The position numbers and the translations under genes were made by a program. Under the pieces are notes generated by a model. The model was not told the DNA's origin and did not search any database. It was given only the letters and a program-made list of their open reading frames with translations. Shown here one piece after another: positions 1-24,309 of a DNA stretch of 25,609 bases (the first letter of the stretch is position 1; every line of letters starts with the position of its first letter). This DNA comes from a virus (taxonomy: Duplodnaviria > Heunggongvirae > Uroviricota > Caudoviricetes): IMG/VR virus record IMGVR_UViG_3300045988_034843. One strand, given 5' to 3'.

Positions 1-899
1 TAGATGACATTGTCATATACAAACGTTTTATCCTGCGTCCAGGCGTTGTACCACGGTGTATCTGTAATTTTAAATAACTCTCCCTGGATAAAATCTTCAG
101 AAGCATAAAAAAGAGGCTGGCCCGGTATTCTCTCAAATAAAAAACGAGCATTTTTAAATCGACTGACATCCGGAAGAGTTGATACTTTAAAAGTAAGCCC
201 TAATCCGTCAATTTTATAACCTGGAGATGAGGCTTCAAGGCACGCGCTTATTGCAGTGGAATCGTCATTTATACCATCACCAACAGCTCCAAAATCTTTG
301 GGGCTAATAGCATCACGCATTTTATCCTGGAACGTTCGGTACACAGCCCCAGAACCATACTGAATAAACCAACCAAAACCACCAACAACTCCGGCGATTG
401 CAGCATCGACATAATTACGCATTGAGCGATTATTTACAGCGTCCTGCTCAAATGATGGATCTGCAAGGTTAGAAATTTTGTTTTGCTTTGCATCGTAATA
501 TTTTGCAAGCAAAGATGGTTTCATCAATGCACGTCTGAACCACCCAAAACATTGCTGGATCAGCATCGTCAGGTAGTCAAAGGCATCTTCATGCACTTCG
601 GGGAAAAATTTTCCCTGATTGCGAAGGTCTGTGTCCTGCACTACATCAAGCACACGATCTATCGTAATTCGCCATCCAGTAGCAAGCGGAGACGGAAGAA
701 CCACAGAACCGCCACTATAAGTGCCCGCCCCAGTTACCGTATAACCGGTATCCAGGACCAATTCTGTTACGTTCCCGTTCAGGTCAGACACCTGAACAAC
801 CAGGTCTGATTTTCTGAAAATTCGAAAAGTATACGGAAACGATGTCGTAACGCCGTTACCGGTGTATTCGTTGTGGTCAACTTCGGTTGAGACCGTCAT
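1..899 (-). CDS. Tailspike / tail fibre, N-terminal ~299 aa only; gene continues past window start
   Basis: ATG at 899 preceded by GGAGA RBS; own translation of minus strand gives MTVSTEVDHNEYTGNGVTTSFPYTFRIF...DLVVQV (pattern like the T7 gp17 N-terminal tail-attachment domain) followed by DFGAVGDGINDDSTAI, a motif typical of pectate-lyase-fold tailspike depolymerases. Not in the ORF track because no stop lies inside the window. Confidence 0.8.
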   Translation of the reverse strand, partial: MTVSTEVDHNEYTGNGVTTSFPYTFRIFRKSDLVVQVSDLNGNVTELVLDTGYTVTGAGTYSGGSVVLPSPLATGWRITIDRVLDVVQDTDLRNQGKFFPEVHEDAFDYLTMLIQQCFGWFRRALMKPSLLAKYYDAKQNKISNLADPSFEQDAVNNRSMRNYVDAAIAGVVGGFGWFIQYGSGAVYRTFQDKMRDAISPKDFGAVGDGINDDSTAISACLEASSPGYKIDGLGLTFKVSTLPDVSRFKNARFLFERIPGQPLFYASEDFIQGELFKITDTPWYNAWTQDKTFVYDNVI

Positions 900-1004
900 G
901 TTAAATCTCCAGATAGTCGCAGCACCCGTTGCGCCGCATATCTGGTTATTCTATTACCTGAAAAACCATATATGGATAAAAAGACTATAAATACCAATAG
1001 ATAT

Positions 1005-1019
1005 TACCTTTCGGGTAAT
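1005..1019. promoter_or_regulatory. Dyad operator-like site TTACC-TTTCG-GGTAA (copy 1 of 6)
   Basis: Exact 5-bp inverted half-sites with 5-bp spacer, flanked A...T; 76 bp upstream of the ATG at 1095. Confidence 0.6.
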
Positions 1020-1055
1020 TTGCAAAACGTGCTGGATAGCAAACAAATTATTTGT

Positions 1056-1075
1056 TACTGTATAAACATACAGTT
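1056..1075. promoter_or_regulatory. LexA (SOS) box TACTGTATAAACATACAGTT
   Basis: CTGT-N8-ACAG with AT-rich spacer, close match to the E. coli LexA consensus TACTGTATATATATACAGTA; contains TATAAA (-10-like); 20 bp upstream of the ATG at 1095. Confidence 0.7.
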
Positions 1076-1094
1076 ATTGCATGGAGAAGATAAG

Positions 1095-1352
1095 ATGCAG
1101 CAGTATCACTATCCACTGGAAGACGGATTTACCGAAAGGATTCACACGCCGGGAGGCGTCAGGTCACTGGTGGAGGGATCGCACTTGATGAAATTACTCC
1201 GGGATCTCGATAAGGATGGATTTAATGTCGATGGCCCACTTGCCGAACTGACTGCACTGATTAACTACGTCACCAGCTCACAGATGTCTATGCAGGATCT
1301 GCAAACACATCTCGACTATTGTGCCGAACAATTACGAAAACAAACCCGGTAA
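1095..1352 (+). CDS. Small (85 aa) protein paralogous to the C-terminal domain of the Ant-like protein at 2503-3159; putative LexA-controlled antirepressor/induction factor
   Basis: Internal ATG of track ORF 972-1352 with GGAGAAG RBS 7 nt upstream; the 972 start would place the LexA box and dyad inside coding sequence; about 50 percent identity by eye to residues ~150-210 of the 218-aa Ant-like protein (IHTPGGV..LMKLL..DG..V.G..AELT...DLQTH). Confidence 0.6.
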   Translation: MQQYHYPLEDGFTERIHTPGGVRSLVEGSHLMKLLRDLDKDGFNVDGPLAELTALINYVTSSQMSMQDLQTHLDYCAEQLRKQTR

Positions 1353-1359
1353 ATTTAAA

Positions 1360-1375
1360 GGCCGCAAGAGCGGCC
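1360..1375. terminator. Hairpin GGCCGC-AAGA-GCGGCC between convergent genes
   Basis: 6-bp GC stem with 4-nt loop directly after the stop at 1352 and overlapping the minus-gene stop at 1375; T-rich on the minus-strand side. Confidence 0.5.
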
Positions 1376-2103
1376 TATCGTTTCGCTTTGTGCTCGTCCC
1401 AGCACGTTTTGCACCATGCCATTAAGCCATCCGCATTTTGATTATTAGGGTAAAAGCTTGTTCGTTTTCTGCGGACATTACAAATTGGGCACCACTTCAT
1501 ATGGCGTGTATTCTTTGGGCCATCGAGACACCTTGCACACCACTTAGTCAATCCATCTGGATTTTTTGACGATTTCCTGAATTTTTCATATGGTAGGTTT
1601 ATTCTGCATCGCAAGCACTGCTTGCTACCACTTGAAACTCTGTTAGCTGATTCTTCTTTTGGCGGCGATACAGAAGGTATTCTTGCTGGCTCTGATACTG
1701 CCTGAGGTGCTTTTTTAGATGACTGAGACGATATGTCATCACCAGGGAATCTTCCATGATATGCCGGACGCGTTGACACTCCAGGTGGAAGCTCAGCTGT
1801 AAACGGCTTTGGCTGAATCAGTTGCCTCTCTTTTGCTAACTCCTGCTGTTTATAATATGTCTGGATTACCGCACTATCATAAGCAGGAGGTGCGGAAATA
1901 TTAGGCGCATTACCTCCAGTTTTTTGAAACTGAGTAGAGGTGTGTTCTATCACCTGTGTACGATTAATCGTTATCTCCCCATCTTCGGTCTTTATCGTTT
2001 TGTTATGATTAACGACCGTACGATCAGAGATCTTAGTCTTGTTCTGGTTGATAACGTAAATAATCACCGCAACCACACCAACAACTATCCAGAAAACTTC
2101 CAT
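1375..2103 (-). CDS. Membrane-anchored protein with tandem C-x2-C-x22-C-x2-C zinc-ribbon-like repeats (242 aa); function unknown
   Basis: Track ORF; N-terminal hydrophobic helix (VFWIVVGVVAVIIYVI); C-terminus has two repeats CLRC...NPDGLTKWCARC and CPIC...NADGLMAWCKTC; GAGGAAAA RBS upstream of ATG at 2103. Confidence 0.7.
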   Translation of the reverse strand: MEVFWIVVGVVAVIIYVINQNKTKISDRTVVNHNKTIKTEDGEITINRTQVIEHTSTQFQKTGGNAPNISAPPAYDSAVIQTYYKQQELAKERQLIQPKPFTAELPPGVSTRPAYHGRFPGDDISSQSSKKAPQAVSEPARIPSVSPPKEESANRVSSGSKQCLRCRINLPYEKFRKSSKNPDGLTKWCARCLDGPKNTRHMKWCPICNVRRKRTSFYPNNQNADGLMAWCKTCWDEHKAKR

Positions 2104-2123
2104 TGCTTTTCCTCACAATAACA

Positions 2124-2138
2124 TTACCTTAAAGGTAA
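2124..2138. promoter_or_regulatory. Dyad operator-like site TTACC-TTAAA-GGTAA (copy 2)
   Basis: Centre 28 bp upstream of the minus-strand ATG at 2103; overlaps a candidate TTGATC-N17-TACCTT promoter on the minus strand. Confidence 0.6.
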
Positions 2139-2216
2139 TATCTTGCTTTCAGGTGATCAAGCGTTAAACGCAATCAACCAAATACGGTTGATTTTAATAT
2201 TTCTTCGCGTTTATCA

Positions 2217-2231
2217 TTACCTTTGCGGTAA
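2217..2231. promoter_or_regulatory. Dyad operator-like site TTACC-TTTGC-GGTAA (copy 3)
   Basis: Same half-sites and spacing; lies in the 400-bp intergenic region between the divergent genes at 2103 and 2503. Confidence 0.55.
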
Positions 2232-2321
2232 ATTTACATTGCACTCCTCTTGTGCCATAGTAATCGGGCACTGGCAAAATCCAGTGCCGGGATTGGTCTC
2301 CCGGATTACTAAGTGGCGCAT

Positions 2322-2344
2322 ACCACGCCAGACGTGGTTTTTTT
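2322..2344 (+). terminator. Rho-independent terminator-like hairpin in the leader upstream of the Ant-like gene
   Basis: ACCACG-CCAGA-CGTGGT stem-loop followed by TTTTTT(T); preceded by two further hairpins at 2267-2288 and 2287-2304. Confidence 0.5.
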
Positions 2345-2502
2345 ATGCGTATAGCACAGTCATGCCAGAATTATGGTGGGCTGAATGGGGGTCCGAAAGG
2401 ACGCCGGTACCACTTAGGCCGGTAAGACCAACTCCGTTCAGTTCACCACCATCTGATTGGTCTCAGCGGTGGTGATGTAATTCGCTAAGTGGAGACGCCA
2501 TC

Positions 2503-3159
2503 ATGAACGCTCAACTCATCCCCGTATTCAACGGCACTATATCTAACGAAACAGCCCTACTTTGTAATGCCCGCGATCTGCACGCTTTTTTAGGTGTTAA
2601 AAAGGTGTTTGCAGCATGGATTACAAATCGCATATCAGAATACGAATTCATTGAAAATCAAGACTATATTTTGCTTTCCAATTTGGGAAAGCAAACATCT
2701 GGTAGAGGCGGCCACAACCGCAAAGAGTACCACCTCACCCTTGATACAGCCAAAGAGCTGGCGATGGTCGAGCGTAACGAAAAAGGTCGCCAGGTGCGAC
2801 GCTACTTCATTGAATGCGAGAAACGTTTAAGACAACAAGAAACAAAAGTGGAGAAGGTCTTGTCAGGCTTCATGCCCGCCATTATGGAGGCGATCAAGCT
2901 GGAAGACAAAAAAGAATACAGCGCCCCACTGAAGCCCGGCTACCGCAGCCTGATTCACTCGCCGTCTGGTGTTCTCGGCCTGACTGAGAACTCACTGCTG
3001 ATGAATCTGCTGAACCAGTTACAGGAAGACGGGCACGATGTATCTGGCGCGGCGGCGGAGCTGACCACCATGTTCTGCTACATCGTTGGTGTGAGCAAAT
3101 GCCTGCGTGATATCCAGACCCACGCGGAGTACATCAACGACAAGGCAGGGTTCTTCTGA
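2503..3159 (+). CDS. Antirepressor-like protein, AntA-type N-terminal domain (218 aa)
   Basis: Track ORF; GGAGA RBS 7 nt upstream; N-terminus IPVFNG...[10 protein letters not shown]...F..W...RI.EYEF.EN.DY resembles the AntA/AntB antirepressor domain as I recall it; C-terminal third is paralogous to the 85-aa protein at 1095-1352. Confidence 0.7.
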
Positions 3160-3244
3160 CGAGCGGCGGCACATGGATGTGCCTACAATTATCAATAATT
3201 GTTTACACTCGTTGCAGTTAAAAGCATTATACTCATGTTTAAAA

Positions 3245-3259
3245 TTACCCGATTGGTAA
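3245..3259. promoter_or_regulatory. Dyad operator-like site TTACC-CGATT-GGTAA (copy 4)
   Basis: Centre 29 bp upstream of ATG 3281, downstream of a TTATACT -10-like element. Confidence 0.6.
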
Positions 3260-3280
3260 AGTCGATTGGTTGAGGTTCAT

Positions 3281-3607
3281 ATGAGCAGAAGATATGTCAA
3301 GGAGCTGGCTATAGAGTCTGGCACCCCTTTGGGTATCGTTCCTGGCTCCAACTATGCCAAGGCTTTAAACCGAGACTCTGTCGTCAAAGTTATATCAAGA
3401 GACATGAATATGGTCGGAGACGATCTCAGACGGTCAGAAAATCGTGTTTATGCTGAATATATAGTAAAGAACGGAAAAAAAATTGCAGCGCCTGCTGGCG
3501 GAAAATGGGCAATAGTGACAGGGAAAAACTCAAATGCAAGAGGAAAACCAGAAGCTAAAGGAATGTCCTTCGACAAATATGCAAAAATCTATTGGGCAAC
3601 CAAGTGA
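3281..3607 (+). CDS. Hypothetical protein (108 aa)
   Basis: ATG 3281 with GAGG 7 nt upstream (track ORF 3266-3607 trimmed to this ATG); AT-rich, lysine-rich; no motif I recognise. Confidence 0.55.
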   Translation: MSRRYVKELAIESGTPLGIVPGSNYAKALNRDSVVKVISRDMNMVGDDLRRSENRVYAEYIVKNGKKIAAPAGGKWAIVTGKNSNARGKPEAKGMSFDKYAKIYWATK

Positions 3608-4082
3608 TAACGAAGAAACTGAGTTCGAGGAAGTTGAGGAAGGGCTAAGTAACGAGATCATTCAACACCCAGATGCCTTCACAAGAGTTCTTGATCGCCC
3701 TGAAATTCAGGAGATAGTTGTCGCTCACCATGCGTTTCAGGGGCCGCTTCCTCCCCCCTATCTGCTTCGCGGGTATCAGGATATTTTACCTGATGCCCCC
3801 GAACGCATCTTCCAGTTGACGGAGAAGGAGTTTGCTCACCGCCAGAAAATGGAGGAAAAGGCACTTGACGGGGCTATTAATAGAGATAAACGTGGGCAGT
3901 GGTTTGGCCTGAGTGCAACTATTTTTACAGTAGCTTGTGCAACATTATTAGGTTTAACAGGTCATGAAGTTCTAGCTGGCACAGTGATCGGTACAGTTGT
4001 TGCAGTGGCTGGTATTTTCGTTCTTAGACAAAAACCAAGCATCAAGAAGAAATCTGAAGACAACAAACCTGAAGAAAAGTAA
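3534..4082 (+). CDS. Membrane protein with two C-terminal TM helices, possibly DUF2335-like (182 aa; alternative start 3579 gives 167 aa)
   Basis: Track ORF; overlaps the 3' end of the previous gene in another frame; conserved-looking stretch PLPPPYLLRGYQDILPDAPERIF...HRQ then hydrophobic segments FGLSATIFTVACATLLGL and VIGTVVAVAGIFVL; followed immediately by a terminator. Confidence 0.6.
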   Translation: MQEENQKLKECPSTNMQKSIGQPSDNEETEFEEVEEGLSNEIIQHPDAFTRVLDRPEIQEIVVAHHAFQGPLPPPYLLRGYQDILPDAPERIFQLTEKEFAHRQKMEEKALDGAINRDKRGQWFGLSATIFTVACATLLGLTGHEVLAGTVIGTVVAVAGIFVLRQKPSIKKKSEDNKPEEK

Positions 4083-4103
4083 GCCCGCGCTGCGGGCTTT
4101 TTT
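4082..4103 (+). terminator. Rho-independent terminator AGCCCGC-GCT-GCGGGCT + T6
   Basis: 7-bp GC-rich stem, 3-nt loop, T-run 4098-4103, directly after the stop at 4080-4082. Confidence 0.75.
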
Positions 4104-4175
4104 GTGGACGAAACAAAAGTCAGTGCTACACTCATTGACGCCACATTGAGGTGGCTTATAGATGGAAATTTCACA

Positions 4176-4337
4176 ATGAAAAAAGCATTTGCTGCACTGT
4201 TCGTTTTGTTGTCTCTGGTAGCTTCAACTCAGGCCTTTGCCGGTCGTTGTCAGCACGACAGCGACACTGCTGCTGACGGCTCCCGCTGCGGTGGGCGTTC
4301 TGCGGATTCCCGCCCGGGTGGCGGTGGCATTCGTTAA
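4176..4337 (+). CDS. Small predicted secreted peptide (53 aa) with N-terminal signal sequence
   Basis: Internal ATG of track ORF 4104-4337; MKKAFAALFVLLSLVASTQAFA looks like a Sec signal peptide with AFA cleavage motif; mature part Cys/Gly/Asp-rich; weak RBS. Confidence 0.4.
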   Translation: MKKAFAALFVLLSLVASTQAFAGRCQHDSDTAADGSRCGGRSADSRPGGGGIR

Positions 4338-4342
4338 AAACA

Positions 4343-4358
4343 AGGCCGCGAAAGCGGC
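4343..4358. terminator. Hairpin GGCCGC-GAAA-GCGGCC shared by convergent genes
   Basis: 6-bp GC stem with GAAA loop; the minus-strand reading is followed by TTGTTTTT, so it most plausibly terminates the minus-strand lipoprotein gene. Confidence 0.55.
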
Positions 4359-4360
4359 CT

Positions 4361-4372
4361 GTGACATGTCAC
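4361..4372. repeat. 12-bp perfect palindrome GTGACATGTCAC (copy 1 of 3)
   Basis: Exact palindrome abutting the hairpin at 4343-4358; overlaps the stop codon of the lipoprotein gene. Confidence 0.6.
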
Positions 4373-4749
4373 GCAACGCAATTATTACCGCGCCATGTAA
4401 CATTTTTAATAATCTTATCAGCACCAAACTCAACGTAAACAGAGCAACTGAAATGGAGTGTATAACCGCCATCAGTTGTTGCGTATGTGTTTGAATATAT
4501 AGTATTACCAATTAGATTAGACGTAGTATTATACGTTGTGGTTTGTGGTACGTTATAACTACCAGAGCTTGAGTAAACATACACTCTGTTTCCATCTGGA
4601 GATGTAAGCTCTCCCTGAGGATACCCCCACTGCTGAACCATTGCGTCTATACTCTGCCCGCGCCACGTAAGCATATTTCTTTCAAACTGTGCAGCTGACT
4701 GGCATCCAACGAGAAGCATAAATCCAAAAATCAAAAATACTTTTCTCAT
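4369..4749 (-). CDS. Putative lipoprotein (126 aa)
   Basis: Internal ATG of track ORF 4369-4785 with AGGGG RBS; MRKVFLIFGFMLLVGCQSA has a lipobox (LVGC); mature part Thr/Ser/Tyr/Asn-rich. Confidence 0.7.
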   Translation of the reverse strand: MRKVFLIFGFMLLVGCQSAAQFERNMLTWRGQSIDAMVQQWGYPQGELTSPDGNRVYVYSSSGSYNVPQTTTYNTTSNLIGNTIYSNTYATTDGGYTLHFSCSVYVEFGADKIIKNVTWRGNNCVA

Positions 4750-4834
4750 AATTACCCCTATCATGGAAAAACAGCACCAATCCACAAATTAACTAGTTAT
4801 TTTATTATTCTTCCGAACAATACAATTCCGAATA

Positions 4835-4960
4835 CTACAAAGCCGAACCATGCCGCTGCACGCAACAGAGATTCCAATTGAAACCCATTTTTATCAAAAT
4901 GTATGAATAGCATAAAAACGCTGCACATATTAGTACAATAAAAGTTATTTGAACCATCAT
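4835..4960 (-). CDS. Small hydrophobic peptide (41 aa), uncertain
   Basis: Own translation: AAGGAG RBS 4 nt before ATGATG at 4960, MMVQITFIVLICAAFLCYSYILIKMGF...; the track lists a different frame (4797-4985) for the same stretch, which lacks an RBS at its internal ATGs; only one of these, or neither, is real. Confidence 0.3.
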   Translation of the reverse strand: MMVQITFIVLICAAFLCYSYILIKMGFNWNLCCVQRHGSAL

Positions 4961-4968
4961 ATCTCCTT

Positions 4969-7443
4969 TTATTGCGGAGTGACATCCTGTGGTCGCCACC
5001 AGTATGTCTGGTTAAACTCTTTCTTCGAACGTTGCTCCATTTTACGCAAATAGCCTGGTGAAAAATACTCCTGCATCTGGTTAAAGATCATGTGATCGAG
5101 AGCCGCCTTCAAGTACCAGAGATTCGCACCAGGCATCAAACCTTTCCCCAGCTTCACCAGATCACCACCAGTCTGCTCACTCTTCCCTTCCACAGCATTT
5201 AACGGTATGCCCTGAGCAATCTTCACTACGTCATCAACCAGACCAGCTACCGGGCCAAGCATCGACGCCAGCGCGCCGCTTCCGTACCTAGTGTGATCTG
5301 ACAATAAAAAGTCACCGTAAAGGCCAAGACCACCACCTTTCAGTAGAGCACCAAGCCAGAATTTTGCGGCATCTTCTCCTGTCATCTCTCGAGGATTACG
5401 ACCAGACGCAAGGTCGTTAAGTTGCTGCGACAAAGCGCCAAGAATGGTCGTACTGGCAATAAACGTCGCAATATATGCCGCACGCCCACCAGCAGACGGC
5501 ATACCCATAGCGCGTGACCAGTGACGCATAACAACCGAGATAGGGAACGATTTAAACAGGAAAACACTTCTCGTTAATTCACCTTTCCATGTTCCACGCT
5601 GAATACCAGAACCGGTTATCAGTTGCTCACGTGCTCCCGGTGTAATAACAGCCATATCAACTTCTTCAGTTACGGCACCGAGCAGTTTACGCATTGCCTC
5701 AAATTTCACGCGTTCAGGCTCACCAAGATGTTTAACTGCTGAATCAGGGATACGCATAATGCTTTCCGGTGTCAGCATCGTATTATTACCGTTCCCCCAG
5801 TCCTCCTGTTTCGCCAGCTTCCATACGCTCCAGTCTGTGTCAGTAATCCCTTTGCTTTTCAGGATACGAAAATCAGAGTCATCGAGGCTACGAAGGTCTG
5901 GTGTCCGTGACACTACTTCTCCCAGGCTTCCCATCATGGTTACGCCATAGGCGCGCTTGTGCGCATCTGACCATGCTGTAAGCCCACTGGCACGCATTAC
6001 CGCCGTTGCCGCCCAACGAGACACTGACGGCCCCATATTATCCATCGCCCAGCGGTTAACGCTGCCAAGTAGAGATTCCATCGCCAGACCAGCGCGGCGC
6101 GCCCGCGCAAGTTCTGTACGGTTCGTTGGGTCCATAGCTTCAAGCTGGTTGCGGAATAACTGGTTCATTGGAAGGTTGGTAACCTTCGCAGACAGATACA
6201 TGGTTCCAAGATCAGAGAACGATGACAGCAACGCGGATCCGAGTCTGCTGGCAACCAGCCAGTTGCGGATATTGTCAGACCATCGCGCGATGTGCGGATT
6301 CGCTACAGGCTGTGTCTTTCCGGAAATAAAGTTGTACAGATTCTCTGTGTTGTTCGCCAGCCGCTCGACTTTACCGGTTTTACTCGGGTTAGCTGTTGCC
6401 GTTTCTGCCTTCACCTGATCAAGAAGAGAGCGGAAAACATGATCGGGGTTTGGGCCATATGTTTCCACCAGTGCAATATCTTTACTGATACCTTCCAGGT
6501 GACCGACCATGATTTCCCATAGAGAGCGATCGCCATAAAGTTGCTGATATTGCAGATAGGAATCTGCATCTTTGAAATGTATCTGTCGTGATGCATTACC
6601 ACGGTTAGCACGTGCGCCGGAAATTCGCATTCCGGTATCAGTAAGCTTATTCAGCCCACCAGTAGCGATCGTGTTATAAGCCTCTCCAAGAAATGAAGAC
6701 AACTCGGCATCGTTCATCAGTTGTCCATCGGCTCGGATATAATATTTGCGATCCAGCTTACCTATAACATCGCTAACCCACTTATCCTTTGATACTGCCC
6801 CAACCTTTTCCATAGAATGATGTTGAGGGATCCCCCAGTTTTCGAGATAGCCAATGTCCCCACCAGCATCATTAAACCGGCGGCGCAGCAGCTCTGTAAC
6901 TTCTCTCCACGCCTTAGCACCGTTTCTTGCTTTAGCATTGCCAGTATTTTGCCCCCGCATTTCATATACCAGGTCACGTACGCCCGCTTCATCTTCAAAC
7001 AGACCAAAAAAGCGAGGATCAACTGCTTCGAATGCCTCCTGCAATTGACTCAATGCATAATCACGGGTGGCTTTTGTTCTGGATTCAACAGAGAGGAAAT
7101 TAGATTTACCGTCTGCATTAAAAGCTATAGTACGGTTAAGAGCGCCAAGTTTCCCATCAGCCCCTTGATAGCTATTGATAAATTTATCCAATCTCTGACG
7201 CGCGGCTATAGTGAGAGCCACACGACGTTTCTTTAATGCCGCTTCTCGCTGTAATTCTTCAGATGCCAATTGTGCTGCTCGATATAGCCGCTCTGATTCG
7301 GAAAGTTGTCGCCACGACATAGGGTCATCACGAGCAATGGAGCGCATATTTCGATAAATGCGGTCTTCAATGTTCTGTATTTCTCGCGCCGTTAACATGC
7401 GCTGCGCCGCCTGCTGAACCGCTTGTATACATTCCTGTCTCAT
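4969..7443 (-). CDS. Large internal virion / DNA-ejection protein (824 aa), gp16-like by position
   Basis: Track ORF; last gene of the structural operon before the accessory island; size and position consistent with a podovirus ejection protein. Confidence 0.6.
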   Translation of the reverse strand: MRQECIQAVQQAAQRMLTAREIQNIEDRIYRNMRSIARDDPMSWRQLSESERLYRAAQLASEELQREAALKKRRVALTIAARQRLDKFINSYQGADGKLGALNRTIAFNADGKSNFLSVESRTKATRDYALSQLQEAFEAVDPRFFGLFEDEAGVRDLVYEMRGQNTGNAKARNGAKAWREVTELLRRRFNDAGGDIGYLENWGIPQHHSMEKVGAVSKDKWVSDVIGKLDRKYYIRADGQLMNDAELSSFLGEAYNTIATGGLNKLTDTGMRISGARANRGNASRQIHFKDADSYLQYQQLYGDRSLWEIMVGHLEGISKDIALVETYGPNPDHVFRSLLDQVKAETATANPSKTGKVERLANNTENLYNFISGKTQPVANPHIARWSDNIRNWLVASRLGSALLSSFSDLGTMYLSAKVTNLPMNQLFRNQLEAMDPTNRTELARARRAGLAMESLLGSVNRWAMDNMGPSVSRWAATAVMRASGLTAWSDAHKRAYGVTMMGSLGEVVSRTPDLRSLDDSDFRILKSKGITDTDWSVWKLAKQEDWGNGNNTMLTPESIMRIPDSAVKHLGEPERVKFEAMRKLLGAVTEEVDMAVITPGAREQLITGSGIQRGTWKGELTRSVFLFKSFPISVVMRHWSRAMGMPSAGGRAAYIATFIASTTILGALSQQLNDLASGRNPREMTGEDAAKFWLGALLKGGGLGLYGDFLLSDHTRYGSGALASMLGPVAGLVDDVVKIAQGIPLNAVEGKSEQTGGDLVKLGKGLMPGANLWYLKAALDHMIFNQMQEYFSPGYLRKMEQRSKKEFNQTYWWRPQDVTPQ

Positions 7444-7448
7444 TTAAT

Positions 7449-9251
7449 TTAACCTCTCAAGAAACACGCCACAGCGACATCAAACAGGCTGGAATCCTGT
7501 ATTGCCTGCTCACTTTCCCTGTTCGCTTCATCCAGTGCTTCACGCGCACTGCGCGATTGTGGATTACCATCATCATCCAGCACGGTGATTATCATGTCCG
7601 GAGATTCAAGCAGCGAGTCTTCAGCTATACGCAGATCAATATCTCCTGCCGGATCTGCCATCATTTTTTGTTCTGTCTGTTGCAATATCTTACCGGGCTC
7701 AAAAGGAGCTACTTCGTCTGGCGTCCTGACCTCTGCTGTTTTATAGAATGAAACAGCCTGAGTATTAAGTTCACTTTCAGCCTGCTGTCTCCGTGCCAGT
7801 TCTGCTCGAGCTTCAAAAAACTGACCGCCAGGCTCATGCGGTGCCAACGCGTTACGAGAAAATTCCAGGCGTTCTTGTGCCTGCCGGATTCGTTGGTCAA
7901 TATCGCGAAGTCTGGCCTGTTTATCTGATCGAGCACGAGATAAAGCCTTACCGCTACCGGCTGGATCTTCTGCAAGAATTTGTGCGCGCTGTTCAGTGAG
8001 ATTTTCAATAATTCGTTGGCTATTAGCGATTTCAGACTGGTAAACCTGTCTATCGCCACGCGGCAAAAGCTGCGCGGCCTGTTCTTCAAGCAACCGATTT
8101 TCTATAGCGCGCGCCGTTACTCCATCATCTACAGATGACAGAGCCTCATTAACTGCCTGAGACAGCAGACTCTTGCGTCCAGGAATTTCACTGAAAGATG
8201 CAGACTCAACAATGCTGGCAACGTCTACAGGTCTCCCCTGGCTAACATCAGACATGGCTTTTCGCAGAGCCTGAATGTGCGAATTACGCGAAAGCACGTT
8301 GATCGGCACGCCGGGAGCAATATCAATTTCAGCATGATGAGCGGCATTCGCCGCCAGTGCAGCATCGATATCAACTGGTGAAAAATTTGGTGCGCTTGTA
8401 GACTCGCCGCGAGAGTTAATAAATCTGCCGACACCACCAAACGCCACCCCAAGAACAGCATCAATAGCAATTGCCTGTCGATCCAACACATCATACTGGT
8501 TAGCCATTTCGCTATAGCCACCATCACGAAGCGTTTTTGCAGTAAGCCCACGCTGTGCCATACCGAACGCAATATTTGTACCTGCGGCATAGGCAATATC
8601 TGGCGTTGCACGTACTGCTGTTGCTGCGGCGCGTCGCACTGAACTTTCACCCGTCCGCGCAAGCTGAGCCGCCACACCTTCCGCCAGCGCACCACCAGCA
8701 CGTAACCCGAGGCTCATAGGGATCAGTGTTCCGGCACCAGCAGTAATACCCTGCACTAATCCCGCTTCCTGCGCCGTCCTGAAATCAACACCCTGTGCTG
8801 TCAGCCGTTCAAACTCAGAAAAACCCTGTAGAGAAGTTACCGCCGCAGCACCTCCGACCGGACCACCGAGCGTTGTACCGACAACAGCCTGCCCGCCCAT
8901 ATCGAACAACCCATAAAGAACCTGCCCGGCGGTTCCGGTTGTCGCGGCATCAGGCGTCAGCCGCTTAACCTGCTGTTCTGCTAGTTTTCTCTGCTCGGCA
9001 ATGTATGAAACTGAAGTATCATTGAGCGAGGTGTTTTCGTTAATAAACTGAGCAATCGGGGATACGATTTTATCCATCCCTGCCCATAGCAACTGATCTG
9101 GCTTTGCCACCAGCCCGGAGTACAAACCAGACAATGCCGCTCCTACAGCATTGTCGAAAAAACCAACATCGCTGTTAAAGCCCGCTGGATTTGATGCTGC
9201 TTCGTCAAGCTGCTGATTCTGGTTTACTGGATTAAGGCCAAAGTAACTCAT
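7449..9251 (-). CDS. Internal virion / ejection protein (600 aa)
   Basis: Track ORF; Ala/Gly-rich, start overlaps the upstream stop (translational coupling). Confidence 0.6.
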   Translation of the reverse strand: MSYFGLNPVNQNQQLDEAASNPAGFNSDVGFFDNAVGAALSGLYSGLVAKPDQLLWAGMDKIVSPIAQFINENTSLNDTSVSYIAEQRKLAEQQVKRLTPDAATTGTAGQVLYGLFDMGGQAVVGTTLGGPVGGAAAVTSLQGFSEFERLTAQGVDFRTAQEAGLVQGITAGAGTLIPMSLGLRAGGALAEGVAAQLARTGESSVRRAAATAVRATPDIAYAAGTNIAFGMAQRGLTAKTLRDGGYSEMANQYDVLDRQAIAIDAVLGVAFGGVGRFINSRGESTSAPNFSPVDIDAALAANAAHHAEIDIAPGVPINVLSRNSHIQALRKAMSDVSQGRPVDVASIVESASFSEIPGRKSLLSQAVNEALSSVDDGVTARAIENRLLEEQAAQLLPRGDRQVYQSEIANSQRIIENLTEQRAQILAEDPAGSGKALSRARSDKQARLRDIDQRIRQAQERLEFSRNALAPHEPGGQFFEARAELARRQQAESELNTQAVSFYKTAEVRTPDEVAPFEPGKILQQTEQKMMADPAGDIDLRIAEDSLLESPDMIITVLDDDGNPQSRSAREALDEANRESEQAIQDSSLFDVAVACFLRG

Positions 9252-18753: not shown

Positions 18754-19050
18754 TCACTCCTGTTCACTGGCCTCTTTGGCCATCTTCAAATACTGTTCAG
18801 GGCAATGCGCCATAACGCGCTGAAACAGTTCCAGCGCCAGATTGCGTTGCCCCTCATTAAATGCCATTGCCATAGCGTCCATCGGTGAGATAGCGGAAAA
18901 CACACGGCCTTTCTCCAGCACCGACCAGACAACGCGACGCCCCTGTTCACTGCTCATGACAAAGCAAATGTCATCAATTTCACGCTGTGCCATGTCACGT
19001 TGCTTACGGGCGTTTTCTTCTTTCAGTTGATCGTCTTCGTAATCTGTCAT
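18754..19050 (-). CDS. Hypothetical protein (98 aa)
   Basis: Track ORF; ATGA overlap with the portal stop; charged, no motif recognised. Confidence 0.5.
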   Translation of the reverse strand: MTDYEDDQLKEENARKQRDMAQREIDDICFVMSSEQGRRVVWSVLEKGRVFSAISPMDAMAMAFNEGQRNLALELFQRVMAHCPEQYLKMAKEASEQE

Positions 19051-21036: not shown

Positions 21037-21051
21037 ATTACCTTTCAGGTA
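21037..21051. promoter_or_regulatory. Dyad operator-like site TTACC-TTTCA-GGTAA (copy 5)
   Basis: Same half-sites and spacing; preceded by TTGACA (21016-21021) 17 bp before TACCTT; lies between the 20947 minus-strand start and the plus-strand tRNA. Confidence 0.6.
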
Positions 21052-21374
21052 ACCAAAGAGTTCATTCCGGTTACTAACCTGACTGGCTTGTCGTTAAATT
21101 GAACAGGTGGAGTGAGCTTTTATTTTGAGCAGTACGGCGTATGGCACATGCGCCGATAGCGGTCTGGATGCGTTTAAGGGGCACCCTCCCTGGCTGTGGC
21201 AAACGAACCAGGTAGCCGGAATGTGCAAGTCGAGCGGTTTTATTCCGCGCACGGGGATTCACCATCCCGGCGATTCGGTGTGACGCCTCGGAAGAGACGA
21301 GGGTACAACGATGAGAGCATTTATGGAGCCGCGACAAAGTGTGGCGCCTTAACAGGCTAAGTGCTCTCAGCGTT

Positions 21375-21451
21375 GTGGCATTAGCTCAGTTGGACAGAGC
21401 AACCGCCTTCTAAGCGGTTGGTCGCAGGTTCGAATCCTGCATGCCACGCCA
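21375..21451 (+). tRNA. tRNA-Arg (anticodon UCU), 77 nt with encoded CCA
   Basis: Hand-folded cloverleaf: acceptor GTGGCAT/ATGCCAC, D-arm GCTC-AGTTGGACA-GAGC, anticodon stem ACCGC/GCGGT with loop CTTCTAA, T-arm GCAGG-TTCGAAT-CCTGC, discriminator G, CCA; close to but not identical with E. coli argU as I recall it. Confidence 0.85.
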
Positions 21452-21649: not shown

Positions 21650-22072
21650 ATGAAAACAGCCGACATGCTAGCTAAATATCTAAATGAATGGCCGTGCAAA
21701 TATGTACGCATTGTTCAGGGTGATGATTCAATTTTTTATGGTGTTTTTGCAGGAAATGAAATGCTTTGTGAAGCAATTCCAGGTGAGCGACTTGCCGGGT
21801 TAACGCTTAGCGATGACCATGGAATAGGAGTTACTTGCCATGACTGGATTTCAGCGCAGAAAACTGAAATGGAAAAAGGCAATGTGTTTGATATTTCTCG
21901 CGCTGTATACGCCAAAGAAAAAAGTGATGATGATTACATGCGCGAAAACTTATACAACATGAAGTTACAATGCCTGGCTGAAGTGCTTAGTAAAAGATCT
22001 TTACTTGATGTGGTTGGTGCTGAGCAGGACGCCAAGGCAATCAACGCCGCATTCGATAAAATAACCTTCTAA
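21650..22072 (+). CDS. Hypothetical protein (140 aa), opposite-strand insert (moron) between terminase and portal
   Basis: Track ORF; AAGGTGA RBS; AT-rich relative to flanking structural genes; bracketed by terminators; no motif recognised. Confidence 0.65.
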   Translation: MKTADMLAKYLNEWPCKYVRIVQGDDSIFYGVFAGNEMLCEAIPGERLAGLTLSDDHGIGVTCHDWISAQKTEMEKGNVFDISRAVYAKEKSDDDYMRENLYNMKLQCLAEVLSKRSLLDVVGAEQDAKAINAAFDKITF

Positions 22073-22076
22073 CGCC

Positions 22077-22088
22077 GTGACATGTCAC
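22077..22088. repeat. 12-bp perfect palindrome GTGACATGTCAC (copy 2)
   Basis: Identical 16-mer context (CGTGACATGTCACAAT) to copy 3; sits between the stop at 22072 and the terminator at 22093. Confidence 0.6.
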
Positions 22089-23591: not shown

Positions 23592-24187
23592 TGATTGCCA
23601 TCCTGACGTTCTTTCAGTCTCTTCCTGGCTGCCGCTATGCGATCAGCAATTGTCACATTCACATTAACATCCAGGCGTTCTTTGAATGCGTTGACGTCGA
23701 CGTGCTTACCAATCAGTTCGAGGTTCTTCACCTTGTCAGGCCATTTAATTTTTTTGAGGATGCCAACCAGCTCTTTCTCGTCTCCACGGCCTTCGAACAT
23801 GTCGGCCAGTTCGAAACCTGTCAGGTACTGCCGCCAGACCTTAGGCCATTCCGAGACCGGCTTGATGCTCATATCGTCGTTGAGAATGTCAATCACGTCC
23901 ATCTGGTCGATCTCCACCAGGCGCATGAGAACGTAATCAGCACTGACGCGCATTCGTTTGTTGCGCTCCTCCATCAACTCGGCAATCCGTTTCTGAATGC
24001 GTTCATCGCGCATCATGACACTGGCTTTAACTGCCGCTGTATTTGGGGAGAATCCTGCATTAATCGCAGCCTGAGTCTGGTTTTCAGGCGTTTTGATGTA
24101 TGACTGGCAATAAGCCTCCTGCATTGCTGTTAGTGGCTTAAATTGCGTTGATTTGCGTTTATAGGTTTTAGGTTCAGCAGGCATCAT
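23588..24187 (-). CDS. Terminase small subunit (199 aa from ATGATG at 24187)
   Basis: Track ORF 23588-24265 begins at a TTG; the in-frame ATGATG at 24187 is preferred; helix-turn-helix-like TAMQEAYCQSYIKTPENQTQAAINAGFSP; directly upstream of and overlapping the large subunit. Confidence 0.55.
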   Translation of the reverse strand: MMPAEPKTYKRKSTQFKPLTAMQEAYCQSYIKTPENQTQAAINAGFSPNTAAVKASVMMRDERIQKRIAELMEERNKRMRVSADYVLMRLVEIDQMDVIDILNDDMSIKPVSEWPKVWRQYLTGFELADMFEGRGDEKELVGILKKIKWPDKVKNLELIGKHVDVNAFKERLDVNVNVTIADRIAAARKRLKERQDGNQ

Positions 24188-24204
24188 AACCACCGTGGTA
24201 ATAG

Positions 24205-24219
24205 TTACCGTTGTGGTAA
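24205..24219. promoter_or_regulatory. Dyad operator-like site TTACC-GTTGT-GGTAA (copy 6), embedded in GGTAA-TAG-TTACC-GTTGT-GGTAA-TAG-TACC
   Basis: Centre 25 bp upstream of the terminase small-subunit ATG; extra half-sites on both sides form a tandem GTGGTAATAG(T)TACC direct repeat. Confidence 0.55.
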
Positions 24220-24230
24220 TAGTACCATGC

Positions 24231-24297: not shown

Positions 24298-24309
24298 GTG
24301 ACATGTCAC
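24298..24309. repeat. 12-bp perfect palindrome GTGACATGTCAC (copy 3)
   Basis: Overlaps the stop codon of the gene at 24306-24644 and lies about 40 bp from the terminator at 24231-24256. Confidence 0.6.

Follow-up and report, generated by a model that had tools for sequence, protein, structure and literature searches.

In phage P22, the immI region lies between gene 16 and gene 9. A window of 25,609 nucleotides of viral DNA (the whole stretch analysed here) holds a cluster of small genes in the analogous position, between the internal virion protein genes and the tailspike gene. This cluster had been predicted to be an accessory island resembling immI and the most likely site of superinfection-exclusion or anti-phage functions, which raises the question of what kind of locus it is, how its genes are controlled, and at what stage of the phage life cycle they act. 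The phage is an Escherichia coli prophage of the genus Uetakevirus (epsilon15/phiV10/SPC32H type), not P22-like, and the slot is a real, well-organised cargo site whose parts are all of known kinds. We consider it likely that region 900-4968 is the antirepressor and cargo arm of this prophage, arranged in four layers, namely a first antirepressor gene (antA), a second one (ant2), a set of dyads, and bays that hold cargo.

Organization of the slot

The two borders of the slot are formed by genes for virion components.

1-899, minus strand: tailspike of the endosialidase type, N-terminal 299 codons, left border (translation; RefSeq annotation of a near-identical prophage)
4969-7443, minus strand: 824-aa virion protein, homolog of epsilon15 gp17, phiV10p20 and SPC32H_018, right border (phrog_684 and annotation)

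Approximately the first 110 amino acids of the tailspike make up its conserved particle-binding domain, with an identity of 65-100% across 76 relatives. The slot, from the tailspike start (899) to the stop codon of the virion protein gene (4969), accommodates eight or nine genes that differ in orientation; the same slot of SPC32H contains only ant and a 46-aa membrane gene. The GC content of the slot is 44.7% (0.447) versus 50.6% (0.506) in the structural genes, and that of any other 4069-bp segment is at least 0.494. Terminator-like sites are also enriched (13 versus 4.0 ± 2.0 expected). Own terminators and lower GC belonged to the original prediction, together with two antirepressor-type genes, several dyad operators, a membrane zinc-ribbon protein, an overlapping two-gene unit ending in a membrane protein, a secreted peptide and a lipoprotein; every one of these items is present at or near its predicted position, with the operator role of the dyads being only probable.

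A core antirepressor gene behind a LexA box

1056-1075, plus strand: LexA box TACTGTATAAACATACAGTT, 20 nt upstream of antA (motif scan)
1095-1352, plus strand: antA (gene A), 85-aa antirepressor, core gene; ortholog of Salmonella phage SPC32H Ant and homolog of epsilon15 gp19
1359-1376, unstranded: GC-rich hairpin where antA and B converge (terminator scan)

The true start of antA is the ATG at 1095, not at 972. Its product matches the anti-repressor protein in PDB entry 5D50 (chain E, E = 4e-47), SPC32H_020 ('ant') occupies the same position, and comparison with SPC32H gives pN 0.08 and pS 0.63. The LexA box is the only one in the whole 25.6-kb window, where 0 are expected. The comparison covered 79 relatives that share at least 94% identity in the flanking virion protein. 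The motif CTGT-N8-ACAG is kept in 78 of them at a near-identical slot position (158-162), with conserved arms and a variable spacer. Because this LexA box is retained in front of it, antA is to be regarded as a core gene rather than cargo. Thus, the predicted accessory character of the island applies to the other genes, which turn over, but not to antA, which is present in all 79 relatives. The hairpin downstream of antA was scored as a terminator for the minus strand alone, on which it would end B, and is presumably bidirectional.

By analogy with its SPC32H ortholog, antA would be the core SOS switch and induction gene, kept off by LexA at 1056-1075. Upon DNA damage, the 85-aa Ant would be produced, bind the non-cleavable repressor Rep and remove it from DNA, the published activity of SPC32H Ant, as cited in PMC7380047 and PMC9638917. 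Since the window ends before the immunity region, Rep can be seen only in a near-identical (98.6%) prophage, which encodes a homolog matching 5D50_A (E = 1.7e-41).

A second antirepressor gene and its antisense RNAs

2233-2261, plus strand: promoter-like site TTTACA-17-CATAGT, with TG, for IsrK/C4/ant2 (promoter scan)
2268-2344, plus strand: IsrK-like small RNA with its own terminator, containing a1 (2293-2299) and b1 (2309-2316) (Rfam RF01394)
2369-2453, plus strand: C4-type antisense RNA, containing b' CCACUUAG (2410-2417, hairpin loop) and a' AGACCAA (2425-2431) (Rfam RF01695)
2457-2492, plus strand: ant2 leader, containing a2 (2457-2463) and b2 (2485-2492) (pairing and covariation)
2503-3159, plus strand: ant2 (gene C), 218 aa, AntA N-terminal domain and SPC32H-Ant-like C-terminal domain (Pfam PF08346)

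The N-terminal domain of Ant2 is recognized by the AntA model (E = 4e-26); in most relatives, it is replaced by Bro-N. Residues 137-213 match 5D50_E (E = 4.6e-14), and this C-terminal domain is 42% identical to the antA product. The C-terminal 80 amino acids are identical to ORF4 of phage ZX5, overexpression of which reduces lysogens about 1000-fold (PMC9782041). Ant2 would therefore be an optional antirepressor in which a Rep-binding-type domain is joined to an AntA domain, with a Rep-type repressor as its presumed target, and it appears to be controlled after transcription.

Two structured RNAs, in 2268-2453, had not been among the predicted features. Transcription from the promoter is predicted to start near 2268, right at the 5' end of the IsrK match, which scores 67.7 bits (gathering score 50); the C4 match scores 61.2 bits (gathering score 45), and the c4-a1b1 family RF03163 reaches 39.9 bits, under its gathering score of 46.7. 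Exact complementarity connects a' with a1 and a2 as well as b' with b1 and b2, and b2 overlaps the Shine-Dalgarno sequence of ant2. Among 32 distinct regulatory regions, the a and b elements covary three ways, in six combinations: all 32 have a1 and a2 perfectly complementary to a', and 24 have b1 and b2 perfectly complementary to b'. According to the alignment, the remaining 8, in which b' is CCTTTGTAG, have an exact b2 and a b1 that needs a single G-U pair.

These features point to a P1/P7-type C4 antisense RNA with an IsrK-like partner as the control of ant2; we infer the direction of control from the sequence. A single promoter would give rise to a terminated IsrK-like RNA carrying a1/b1 and to a read-through transcript with C4 and ant2. 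The a'/b' loops of C4 would pair with a2/b2 and so cover the ribosome-binding site of ant2, and the IsrK-like RNA could compete for the same loops. The immI locus of P1/P7 and the IsrK-AnrP locus of Gifsy-1 follow the same post-transcriptional logic. However, P1 and Gifsy-1 have a leader open reading frame (icd and orf45, respectively), whereas ant2 lacks one, so that the details of control may differ.

The slot does carry anti-immunity functions of the phage, in the form of the two antirepressors at 1095-1352 and 2503-3159, in support of the predicted likeness to P22 immI. A P22-type immI would place an antirepressor under Arc/Mnt repressors and sar RNA, beside a SieA-like exclusion protein. 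The analogous position and one relative, TL-2011b, in which a P22-type Ant and an Arc-like repressor adjoin the same cargo genes (A, B, Ant2 and F), are in line with it. Nevertheless, such a locus is very improbable in the window and is contradicted on several counts: the phage belongs to Uetakevirus, antA is LexA-controlled, and the Rfam search found IsrK and C4, not sar. Moreover, ant2 combines AntA with an SPC32H-Ant-like domain and lacks the domains of P22 Ant, and the island proteins show no Pfam match of the Arc/Mnt or any other ribbon-helix-helix type, the only matches above threshold being AntA and DUF2335.

Operator-like dyads at the promoters

1003-1019, unstranded: dyad ATTACCTTTCGGGTAAT, probable Rep operator in the control region from which tailspike and antA diverge (dyad scan)
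2123-2139, unstranded: dyad ATTACCTTAAAGGTAAT, 20 nt before the start codon of B (dyad scan)
2216-2232, unstranded: dyad ATTACCTTTGCGGTAAA, directly adjoining the -35 hexamer of the promoter for IsrK/C4/ant2 (dyad and promoter scans)
3202-3260, plus strand: D-E control region, with promoter-like sites (3202-3230, 3218-3245) followed by or overlapping dyad ATTACCCGATTGGTAAA (3244-3260) (scans)

The 17-bp dyad ATTACC-N5-GGTAAT occurs 8 times in the whole window, versus 0.77 expected. The early region of the near-identical relative likewise contains 8 (0.48 expected) and SPC32H 18 (1.18 expected), three of them in tandem between rep and the divergent gene, with another ahead of ant. The position of the dyad at 1003 is conserved even in diverged relatives and in SPC32H. 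From where they occur, we conclude that the dyads are probably Rep operators, with Rep binding predicted from sequence. Dyads of the kind that cluster around rep-cro stand at the promoters of antA/tailspike, B, IsrK-C4-ant2 and D-E, which probably links these genes to the master repressor, with expression beginning upon induction or infection rather than in the lysogen. The probable operators in front of B, ant2 and D-E suggest that these genes are silent in the lysogen. Counting against the assignment to Rep, the same dyad also precedes a D homolog in a Rahnella lambdoid prophage.

A promoter and dyad form the junction at the 3' end of Ant2 in 42 of 51 relatives, and ten unrelated sequence families start directly after this dyad. 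One dyad of the slot marks the point where cargo homology breaks.

Turnover of the cargo

1375-2103, minus strand: B, 242 aa, one N-terminal TM helix, low-complexity linker and two 4-Cys zinc ribbons (phrog_6762, full-length)
3281-3607, plus strand: D, 108 aa, first gene of an overlapping pair (phrog_10654)
3534-4082, plus strand: E, DUF2335 protein, start at 3534 or 3582 (Pfam PF10097)
4081-4099, unstranded: bidirectional terminator 3' of E (terminator scan)
4176-4337, plus strand: F, 53-aa precursor; signal peptide (…QAFA|G), mature peptide of 31 aa with two Cys (phrog_14503)
4343-4372, unstranded: terminator hairpin (4343-4360) and palindrome GTGACATGTCAC (4361-4372), where the plus-strand arm meets the minus-strand bay
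4369-4749, minus strand: G, 126-aa lipoprotein, lipobox LLVGC with Gln at +2, BamE/OsmE/BLIP-like fold
4835-4960, minus strand: H', possible 41-aa single-pass membrane peptide, uncertain gene (open reading frame list)

Comparison of the slot across the 79 related prophages revealed heavy cargo turnover, with lengths from 648 to 5637 bp and 46 gene arrangements. The bays around the regulatory core are filled differently in nearly every relative, here with B, D-E, F and G, possibly with H'. The functions given below are all predicted from sequence.

B, with two CxxC-22-CxxC motifs and PHROG zinc-ribbon matches, is optional cargo (20 of 79 relatives) with distant homologs in Yersinia and Aeromonas phages and a dN/dS of 0.33-0.35. 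D has about 6 true relatives among 1.84 billion representatives, and its homolog precedes a DUF2335 gene in the Rahnella prophage. In E (PF10097, E = 1.6e-15), the N-terminus is acidic, two TM helices lie at the C-terminus, and there is a GPLPPP...HR motif; depending on its start, E overlaps D by 74 or 26 nt, and it differs from the Rahnella protein with pN 0.20 and pS 0.84.

F (GC 57%, dN/dS 0.07) is found in 35 of 79 relatives, and a 75% identical copy adjoins D-E in Rahnella. With a candidate promoter upstream (TTGACG-16-TATAGA, about 4136-4163, recognized by eye but not by the promoter scan) and a terminator downstream, F looks like a free-standing moron, as, of the remaining cargo, possibly G/H' do. 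H' has a strong Shine-Dalgarno sequence (GGAGAT), and its DNA co-occurs with G in 9 relatives; it lacks a RefSeq annotation in the near-identical prophage, and the Klebsiella phage has no equivalent open reading frame upstream of G.

Possible roles of the cargo

The cargo (B, D-E, F and G/H') might mainly be expressed by the prophage to protect the lysogen through superinfection exclusion or anti-phage defence, a role we consider doubtful. Defence or moron hotspots typically show high turnover and low GC, every product except that of D is predicted to lie in a membrane or the periplasm or to be a lipoprotein, and in relatives the variable bay contains YafO-like toxin genes and DUF4760. F, with its candidate promoter and terminator, has no dyad; the bay that holds G, adjoining the virion protein gene, always carries small envelope proteins in the relatives; and the BamE/BLIP-like fold of G is used elsewhere by inhibitor and immunity proteins. 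However, the probable operators before B and D-E argue for silence in the lysogen, the PADLOC models match neither any window gene nor ten alternative cargo proteins, and B, D-E, F, G and H' match no known defence family. In addition, ZX5, which carries antA, ant2, D-E, F and G, confers no phenotype on its lysogens in the reported assays, among which phage challenge is not included (PMC9782041).

Alternatively, the operator-linked cargo (B and D-E here; YafO-like toxins, DUF4760 and others in relatives) could be lytic-phase helpers, turned on once Rep is removed and serving host takeover, counter-defence or the timing of envelope events instead of lysogen protection; we regard this reading as possible, if tentative. 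Irrespective of which gene comes next, the cargo promoter of 42 out of 51 relatives has a dyad overlapping or following its -10 region; D-E-F also lie just downstream of the late-gene antiterminator in the Rahnella lambdoid prophage; and the cargo adjoins antirepressor genes, which act at the same moment. On the other hand, Rep binding to the dyads is putative, those just upstream of a -35 hexamer (1003 and 2216) could mean activation rather than repression, and the operator-linked proteins lack functional homology. That the island is decaying recombination debris in which antA alone has a selected function is extremely improbable. Deletion and rearrangement variants are numerous; for example, an IS element interrupts ant2 in L065, L071 contains an inverted duplication, and the Ant2 flank can be fused directly to the last codons of F. 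In addition, TL-2011b annotates B merely as a misc_feature. Yet non-synonymous changes are far below synonymous ones in each cargo gene (dN/dS 0.07-0.35), indicating purifying selection, cargo homologs persist across genera, and the RNA targets covary. Within the antirepressor and cargo arm that we favour, F and G are the best candidates for envelope functions expressed in the lysogen.

Identity and composition of the slot

The first 6 kb of the window match E. coli prophages and the Uetakevirus phages phiV10, vB_EcoP_ZX5 and phiv142-3, and, more distantly, the SPC32H/SPN1S group of Salmonella phages. Among the E. coli matches, the best (98.6% identity across 94% of the query) is a prophage between guaA and yfgI, in which lysis genes, a 3.1-kb endosialidase-type tailspike, the island and the genes for three large virion proteins (824 aa, 600 aa and one further) follow in this order, the virion proteins being encoded on the minus strand. 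The comparison with the immI region of P22, made in the original prediction, holds for map position only: the phage is not P22-like and belongs to the SPC32H type of Uetakevirus. This correction gives a different frame of reference, namely, a common E. coli prophage type integrated at guaA, here with a K1-type endosialidase tailspike.

The tailspike start codon lies at 899 and the stop codon of the 824-aa protein at 4969, and therefore the borders initially drawn for the slot, 900-4968, are exact. All features originally named in this slot were found, including the lower GC content (0.447 compared with 0.506 in the structural genes, with no window of equal length elsewhere falling below 0.494) and the terminators, with 13 terminator-like hairpins in the island versus 4.0 +/- 2.0 in shuffles. 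Clear terminator hairpins lie at 1359-1376, 2322-2338, 4081-4099 and 4343-4360. When the island genes were compared with diverged copies by dN/dS or pN/pS, non-synonymous changes were far rarer than synonymous ones in all those tested (B, G, F, D, E and antA), which argues that these genes are real.

Genes of the slot, with substitution ratios against diverged copies

antA (gene A), 1095-1352, plus strand: antirepressor; dN/dS 0.06
B, 1375-2103, minus strand: zinc-ribbon membrane protein; dN/dS 0.33-0.35
ant2 (gene C), 2503-3159, plus strand: predicted second antirepressor
D, 3281-3607, plus strand: first gene of an overlapping pair; dN/dS 0.27
E, 3534 or 3582 to 4082, plus strand: second gene of the pair, membrane protein; pN 0.20 versus pS 0.84
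F, 4176-4337, plus strand: secreted peptide precursor; dN/dS 0.07
G, 4369-4749, minus strand: lipoprotein; dN/dS 0.11
H', 4835-4960, minus strand: 41-aa frame, doubtful as a real gene

The 41-aa frame, which has a strong ribosome-binding site, was retained in place of a 62-aa ORF at 4797-4985.

Ordered bays and cargo turnover

Viral contigs were scanned with the 824-aa protein, yielding 342 relatives, of which the best 80, at least 94% identical in this protein, were analysed. Turnover of cargo, one of the original expectations, is extensive: the slots range from 648 to 5637 bp, 76 of 79 are distinct in sequence and 46 gene arrangements occur among them, so the island is not a conserved core block, the outcome that would have spoken against the original prediction. 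The order of the bays is nevertheless fixed across the 79 slots.

Bays of the slot, with the number of slots (of 79) that carry each content

Bay 1: antA (79)
Bay 2: optional minus-strand gene, either B (20) or a YafO-like gene (1)
Bay 3: ant2 with its RNAs (49)
Bay 4: one variable plus-strand cassette, such as D-E (3), DUF4760 (9), YafO-like (6) or one of several unknowns
Bay 5: F (35)
Bay 6: minus strand, adjoining the virion protein gene; one of four small envelope-protein sets, namely, a 48-aa membrane protein (23), 98-aa plus 60-aa membrane proteins (33), a 137-aa lipoprotein (11) or G plus H' (10)

The gene combination of the window is unique in this sample. At 42 of the 51 junctions 3' of ant2, a short hairpin is followed by a promoter and a dyad (ATTACC-N5-GGTAAT), and homology among the relatives stops right after the dyad, where ten unrelated sequence families start. 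The other nine ant2 junctions lack the dyad; the cargo bay is lost, and the ant2 flank is joined to the last codons of F (GGCGGTGGCATTCGTTAA). Such fusions, found in the slots of related genomes L002, L013, L042, L046, L062, L065, L067 and L071, look like the product of deletions between short GGCGG-rich repeats that would have removed the cargo bay together with most of F.

In the window, the short hairpin, GGCACA(T/G)GGATGTGCC, lies at 3167-3182, directly 3' of the ant2 stop codon and ahead of the cargo promoter, and it is kept in nearly all relatives. The longest slot, of 5637 bp (L071), contains the ant2-cargo-F unit duplicated in inverted orientation, and in L065 an IS transposase gene is inserted in ant2; both are signs of ongoing rearrangement.

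An antirepressor behind a LexA box at the head of the slot

The 85-aa product of antA aligns end to end with PDB 5D50_E, 'Anti-repressor protein' (E 4e-47), residues 2-84 matching 3-85 over 83 aligned residues. PDB 5D50 is the Rep-Ant complex of Salmonella phage SPC32H, Rep being the master repressor of the phage; this switch was reportedly described by Kim & Ryu in 2013 and by Kim et al. in 2016. Judged by the alignment, antA is a full-length ortholog of SPC32H Ant, the known SOS antirepressor. Its position agrees as well: in the SPC32H genome, the annotated ant gene lies between the gene for the 824-aa (gp17-like) protein and the tailspike gene tsp, behind the same block of dyad and LexA box. 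However, its sole neighbour in that slot is a gene for a 46-aa membrane protein, and ant2 and the IsrK and C4 RNAs are absent, whereas in the window 3.4 kb of additional genes separate the ant terminator from the palindrome at the junction with the envelope bay.

The LexA box, TACTGTATAAACATACAGTT at 1056-1075, twenty nucleotides 5' of the antA start codon, is the sole match to such a box in 25.6 kb. The CTGT-N8-ACAG arms occupy a near-identical place (slot position 158-162) in 78 of the 79 related slots and are also present in SPC32H, and the eight spacer bases vary while the arms are kept, as expected of a working LexA site. Given its presence in every slot, antA is a core gene rather than cargo.

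According to PMC7380047, SOS-induced self-cleavage of LexA permits Ant synthesis, and Ant inactivates the repressor by protein-protein contact; PMC9638917 adds that tetrameric Ant binds two Rep dimers and breaks up the DNA-binding Rep tetramer. The window ends before the immunity region, and the Rep homolog (5D50_A, E 1.7e-41) was identified in the 98.6% identical prophage in NZ_CM185152. Induction of prophages of this type would depend on an antirepressor controlled by LexA and not on cleavage of the repressor. A 126-aa ORF starting at 972 was rejected as the product of this gene: the start is at 1095 in homologs and in RefSeq, and the longer ORF contains the LexA box.

A second antirepressor and its RNAs

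The N-terminal part of the ant2 product is a Pfam AntA domain (E 4e-26); residues 137-213 form a homolog of SPC32H Ant (E 4.6e-14) that shares 42% identity with antA. In 44 relatives, a Bro-N domain replaces AntA before the same C-terminal domain (about 92% identical); the AntA version occurs in only 6. The last 80 residues are identical to those of ORF4 of phage vB_EcoP_ZX5; when ORF4 was overexpressed, lysogens fell from 10^9 to 10^6 and transcripts of the repressor dropped by 75% (PMC9782041).

Two Rfam matches above the gathering score lie in the 400-bp spacer 5' of ant2: IsrK (RF01394, 2268-2344, 67.7 bits against a gathering score of 50) and the C4 antisense RNA (RF01695, 2369-2453, 61.2 bits against 45). 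The related c4-a1b1 model matches 2255-2307 below its threshold. A promoter-like TTTACA-17-CATAGT has its predicted start at the 5' end of IsrK, and the 3' end of IsrK is a hairpin with a T-run, that is, its own terminator, with read-through into ant2. By homology and by this arrangement, ant2 is a second antirepressor, probably under P1-type RNA control.

The C4 RNA has two elements, a' and b', that are exactly complementary, over 7 and 8 nt, respectively, to two target places each in the window. The unpaired a' sequence AGACCAA has its complement UUGGUCU at 2293-2299 (a1, in an IsrK loop) and at 2457-2463 (a2), and the hairpin loop b', CCACUUAG, has its complement CUAAGUGG at 2309-2316 (b1, in IsrK) and at 2485-2492 (b2), the latter overlapping the Shine-Dalgarno sequence of ant2. 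Among 32 distinct versions of this IsrK/C4/ant2 leader region, three a-types (AGACCAA, ACGCCAA and GUGCAAA) and three b-types (CCACUUAG, CCUUUUAG and CCUUUGUAG) combine in six ways. In all 32 regions, a' is matched exactly by both a1 and a2. For b', the match with b1 and b2 is exact in 24; in the other 8, where b' is CCUUUGUAG, b2 is exact and b1 contains one G-U pair, as read from the alignment rather than by the exact-match script. Covariation of all three partners argues strongly, on comparative grounds, that the pairings matter.

No icd- or orf45-like leader ORF was found before ant2: the gap from C4 to the ATG measures 49 nt, and a five-codon frame ends at the ant2 start. A 110-aa ORF at 2143-2475 was discarded, as it covers the IsrK and C4 RNAs. 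The Rfam search of the whole window at E<=1 returned a tRNA, IsrK, C4, c4-a1b1 and weak sub-threshold matches to Plastid-ycf2 and Trp_leader, with no sar RNA.

The Pfam matches of the island proteins include no Arc/Mnt-type or other ribbon-helix-helix family; such a protein was seen only in a relative, phage TL-2011b (L003). There, at 7609-8793, a P22-type Ant and an Arc-like repressor stand beside A, B, Ant2 and F and come on top of the Bro-N antirepressor, so that three antirepressor genes would share one region.

Predicted Rep operators and a junction palindrome

Scanning for ATTACC-N5-GGTAAT with up to 2 mismatches returned 8 dyads in the window, against 0.77 expected. Four of these, at 1003, 2123, 2216 and 3244, are in the island, all in intergenic control regions. 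The SPC32H genome contains 18 (1.18 expected): three follow one another in the space that separates rep from the divergent gene, one is 5' of ant and others precede the terminase operon and the portal operon. In the E. coli relative, the early region accounts for 8 (0.48 expected), the rep-proximal spacer again being among the sites. From these site counts of our own, we infer that the dyad is the Rep operator and that Rep would control many dispersed promoters. The dyad at 3244 overlaps or follows the -10 region of the cargo promoter, a placement that would be repressing, whereas those at 1003 and 2216 adjoin a possible -35 hexamer on its upstream side; at these two sites, activation is possible.

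Further dyads in the window precede the structural and terminase operons (21037-21053, 24186-24202 and 24204-24220, the last two forming a tandem pair), and many early-region spacers carry them too (L085, which is SPC32H, and L084, genome-wide). Together, these sites suggest one repressor acting at many dispersed promoters. C1 of P1 is a repressor of this kind.

A 12-bp palindrome, GTGACATGTCAC, has 4 matches in the window against 0.08 expected, three exact (4361-4372, 22077-22088 and 24298-24309) and one, inside the structural genes, with one mismatch (18987-18998). It recurs in SPC32H at 2145, 19634 and 38629 and in L084 at 18931. In the window prophage and in SPC32H, it is found mostly at the 3' ends of transcription units and at convergent junctions, beside terminator hairpins; the copy in the slot lies where the plus-strand arm gives way to the minus-strand envelope bay.

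Cargo genes and defence searches

The B protein starts with a membrane helix followed by basic residues, which places the remainder of the protein in the cytoplasm by prediction. A Pro/Ser/Gln-rich linker leads to two CxxC-22-CxxC zinc ribbons; in PHROG, these partly match endonuclease VII and Lar-like proteins, at the zinc-binding ends. Homologs with 30-35% identity occur in Yersinia and Aeromonas phages; the genomic context of the distant one in Yersinia phage YeP5 offered nothing informative.

The reading frames of D and E share 74 or 26 nt, according to which E start is used. E has an acidic N-terminus that varies, the motif GPLPPP...Y...H...R...RGQ of DUF2335, which is invariant, and two membrane helices, and a distant DUF2335 gene likewise follows a small overlapping upstream gene with similar motifs. 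True relatives of D number only about six. Among 5426 complete E. coli genomes, 68 contain the whole D-E-F unit and about 500 the F part. In Rahnella lambdoid prophages, D-E(-F) (L086, 4384-5477; L087, 5682-6498) lies directly 3' of a Q-type late antiterminator gene, and the dyad ATTACCAATAAGGTAAC precedes D; in one such prophage, a D homolog (34% identical) is followed by homologs of E (70%) and F (75%). The cassette thus moves between unrelated phage types together with its control site.

The only literature mentions of DUF2335 cast it as a phospholipase toxin domain of T6SS effectors, an assignment that does not fit a 50-residue motif beside two membrane helices and looks like confusion with another DUF. 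As a type II toxin-antitoxin pair of the YafO type, D-E found no support, D belonging to no family and E matching DUF2335 only; the YafO-like genes of relatives occupy the same bay and are different proteins. The structure model of E (pLDDT 59.8, pTM 0.22) was too poor for a fold search. PADLOC-DB 2.0 returned nothing significant for 8 window proteins, apart from a weak MTase_II listing for E (E 0.039), and no match at E<=0.01 for ten alternative cargo proteins; NCBIfam gave no match.

F encodes a signal-peptide precursor of a 31-residue peptide with two cysteines and has a GC content of 57%; the gene has a candidate promoter (read by eye and missed by the scan) and a 3' terminator, and no dyad. 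The G protein carries a lipobox; the Gln at +2 suggests an outer-membrane location under the usual lipoprotein sorting rule. Its structure model (pLDDT 85) combines with the lipobox to give a predicted lipoprotein of BamE/OsmE/BLIP-like fold. At the level of sequence, Pfam at E<=0.1 gave no match, either to SmpA_OmlA or to another family. Two invariant Cys pairs, four cysteines in all, and a GNNC tail are specific to the small enterobacterial family of G. In a Klebsiella phage, G is found in the same bay. The genes behind predicted operators, B and D-E, look rather like functions of the induction phase; better candidates for functions expressed in the lysogen are F and the envelope bay, with G.

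Relationship to known systems

Control of P1/P7 immI, as outlined in PMC7313666, depends on the c4 RNA, which regulates ant via complementary sites 5' of the gene. The window shares the C4-family RNA 5' of an antirepressor gene, with the a'/b' pair facing an upstream a1/b1 and an a2/b2 at the ribosome-binding site, and the co-variation of specificity variants seen in P1/P7 heteroimmunity is repeated among its relatives. It differs in that P1/P7 couples ant translationally to the leader ORF icd, whereas here icd is absent and b2 lies on the Shine-Dalgarno sequence of ant2 itself; the repressor of P1 is C1, whereas the SPC32H-Ant-like effector domain of ant2 makes an SPC32H-type Rep the likely target; and the host of ant2/C4 is here a podovirus prophage.

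With the Gifsy-1 IsrK-orf45-AnrP module, the window has in common a terminated IsrK-family RNA with read-through to an antirepressor gene. In Gifsy-1, RNA structure keeps the read-through transcript untranslated until IsrK activates it in trans (PMC4825925), and by analogy the design in the window would mirror this. In contrast, orf45 is absent here, and the downstream antirepressor has a different domain make-up.

The analogy to P22 immI extends to the map position by the tailspike, between ejection or virion protein genes, and to the general role of an antirepressor silent in the lysogen with neighbouring accessory genes. The antirepressor families and the phage lineages differ, and Arc, Mnt and sar are replaced by LexA, the C4/IsrK RNAs and Rep-type dyads. 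The original interpretation is therefore upheld as regards an anti-immunity and accessory arm with cargo turnover and has to be given up as regards phage type and control logic.

Temperate phages have hotspots for morons and other accessory genes; examples are the variable loci of P2-like phages and, among lambdoid phages, the region 3' of Q. Like these, the slot has constant flanks, a low GC content, promoters and terminators of its own and a fast turnover of unrelated genes, and the lambdoid hotspot 3' of Q hosts the D-E-F cassette itself in one prophage. The slot differs in that its bays are ordered, one of them starting at a conserved promoter-operator, and the 79 slots sampled yielded no recognised defence system.

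The best-understood parts, antA and the C4/IsrK-controlled ant2, are both of known families, and on present evidence no part of the slot is a new class of system. Many copies of this prophage type carry the second, RNA-gated antirepressor with the same repressor-binding domain, and trans-acting antirepressors can couple induction among several prophages of one cell. The ordered bays, the promoter-operator before the variable bay and the always-filled envelope bay offer a guide to unknown genes that may have roles in exclusion, defence or lytic growth, of which the D-E pair, F and the BamE-fold lipoprotein G are prime candidates.

A broader reading, which we put forward tentatively and consider rather unlikely, sees the slot as an operator-delimited cargo rack. 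Unrelated cassettes may be swapped at short conserved control sequences acting as recombination joints, namely, the palindrome GTGACATGTCAC, the GC-rich flank of Ant2 and, at the cargo promoter, the Rep-type dyad. If so, a new gene in the middle bay would come under the master repressor and fire with both antirepressors; ant2, with its diversifying C4 'barcode' of at least six a/b combinations, would be a trans-acting weapon or immunity determinant among competing Uetakevirus prophages; and the D-E pair and G would be new kinds of induction-phase or exclusion effectors.

Other variable sites

The tailspike (window positions 1-899) is of the endosialidase type, which implies specificity for the K1 capsule. 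Relatives share 65-100% identity over its first ~110 aa, and past this point the tailspike or tail-fibre annotations differ; the receptor-binding part is therefore swapped independently of the island. Between the structural operon and the terminase genes, at the place of a tRNA-Arg in SPC32H, is a tRNA gene (21375-21448, plus strand, 73.3 bits), and an adjoining 140-aa ORF of lower GC (21650-22072, plus strand) is possibly another small cargo site.
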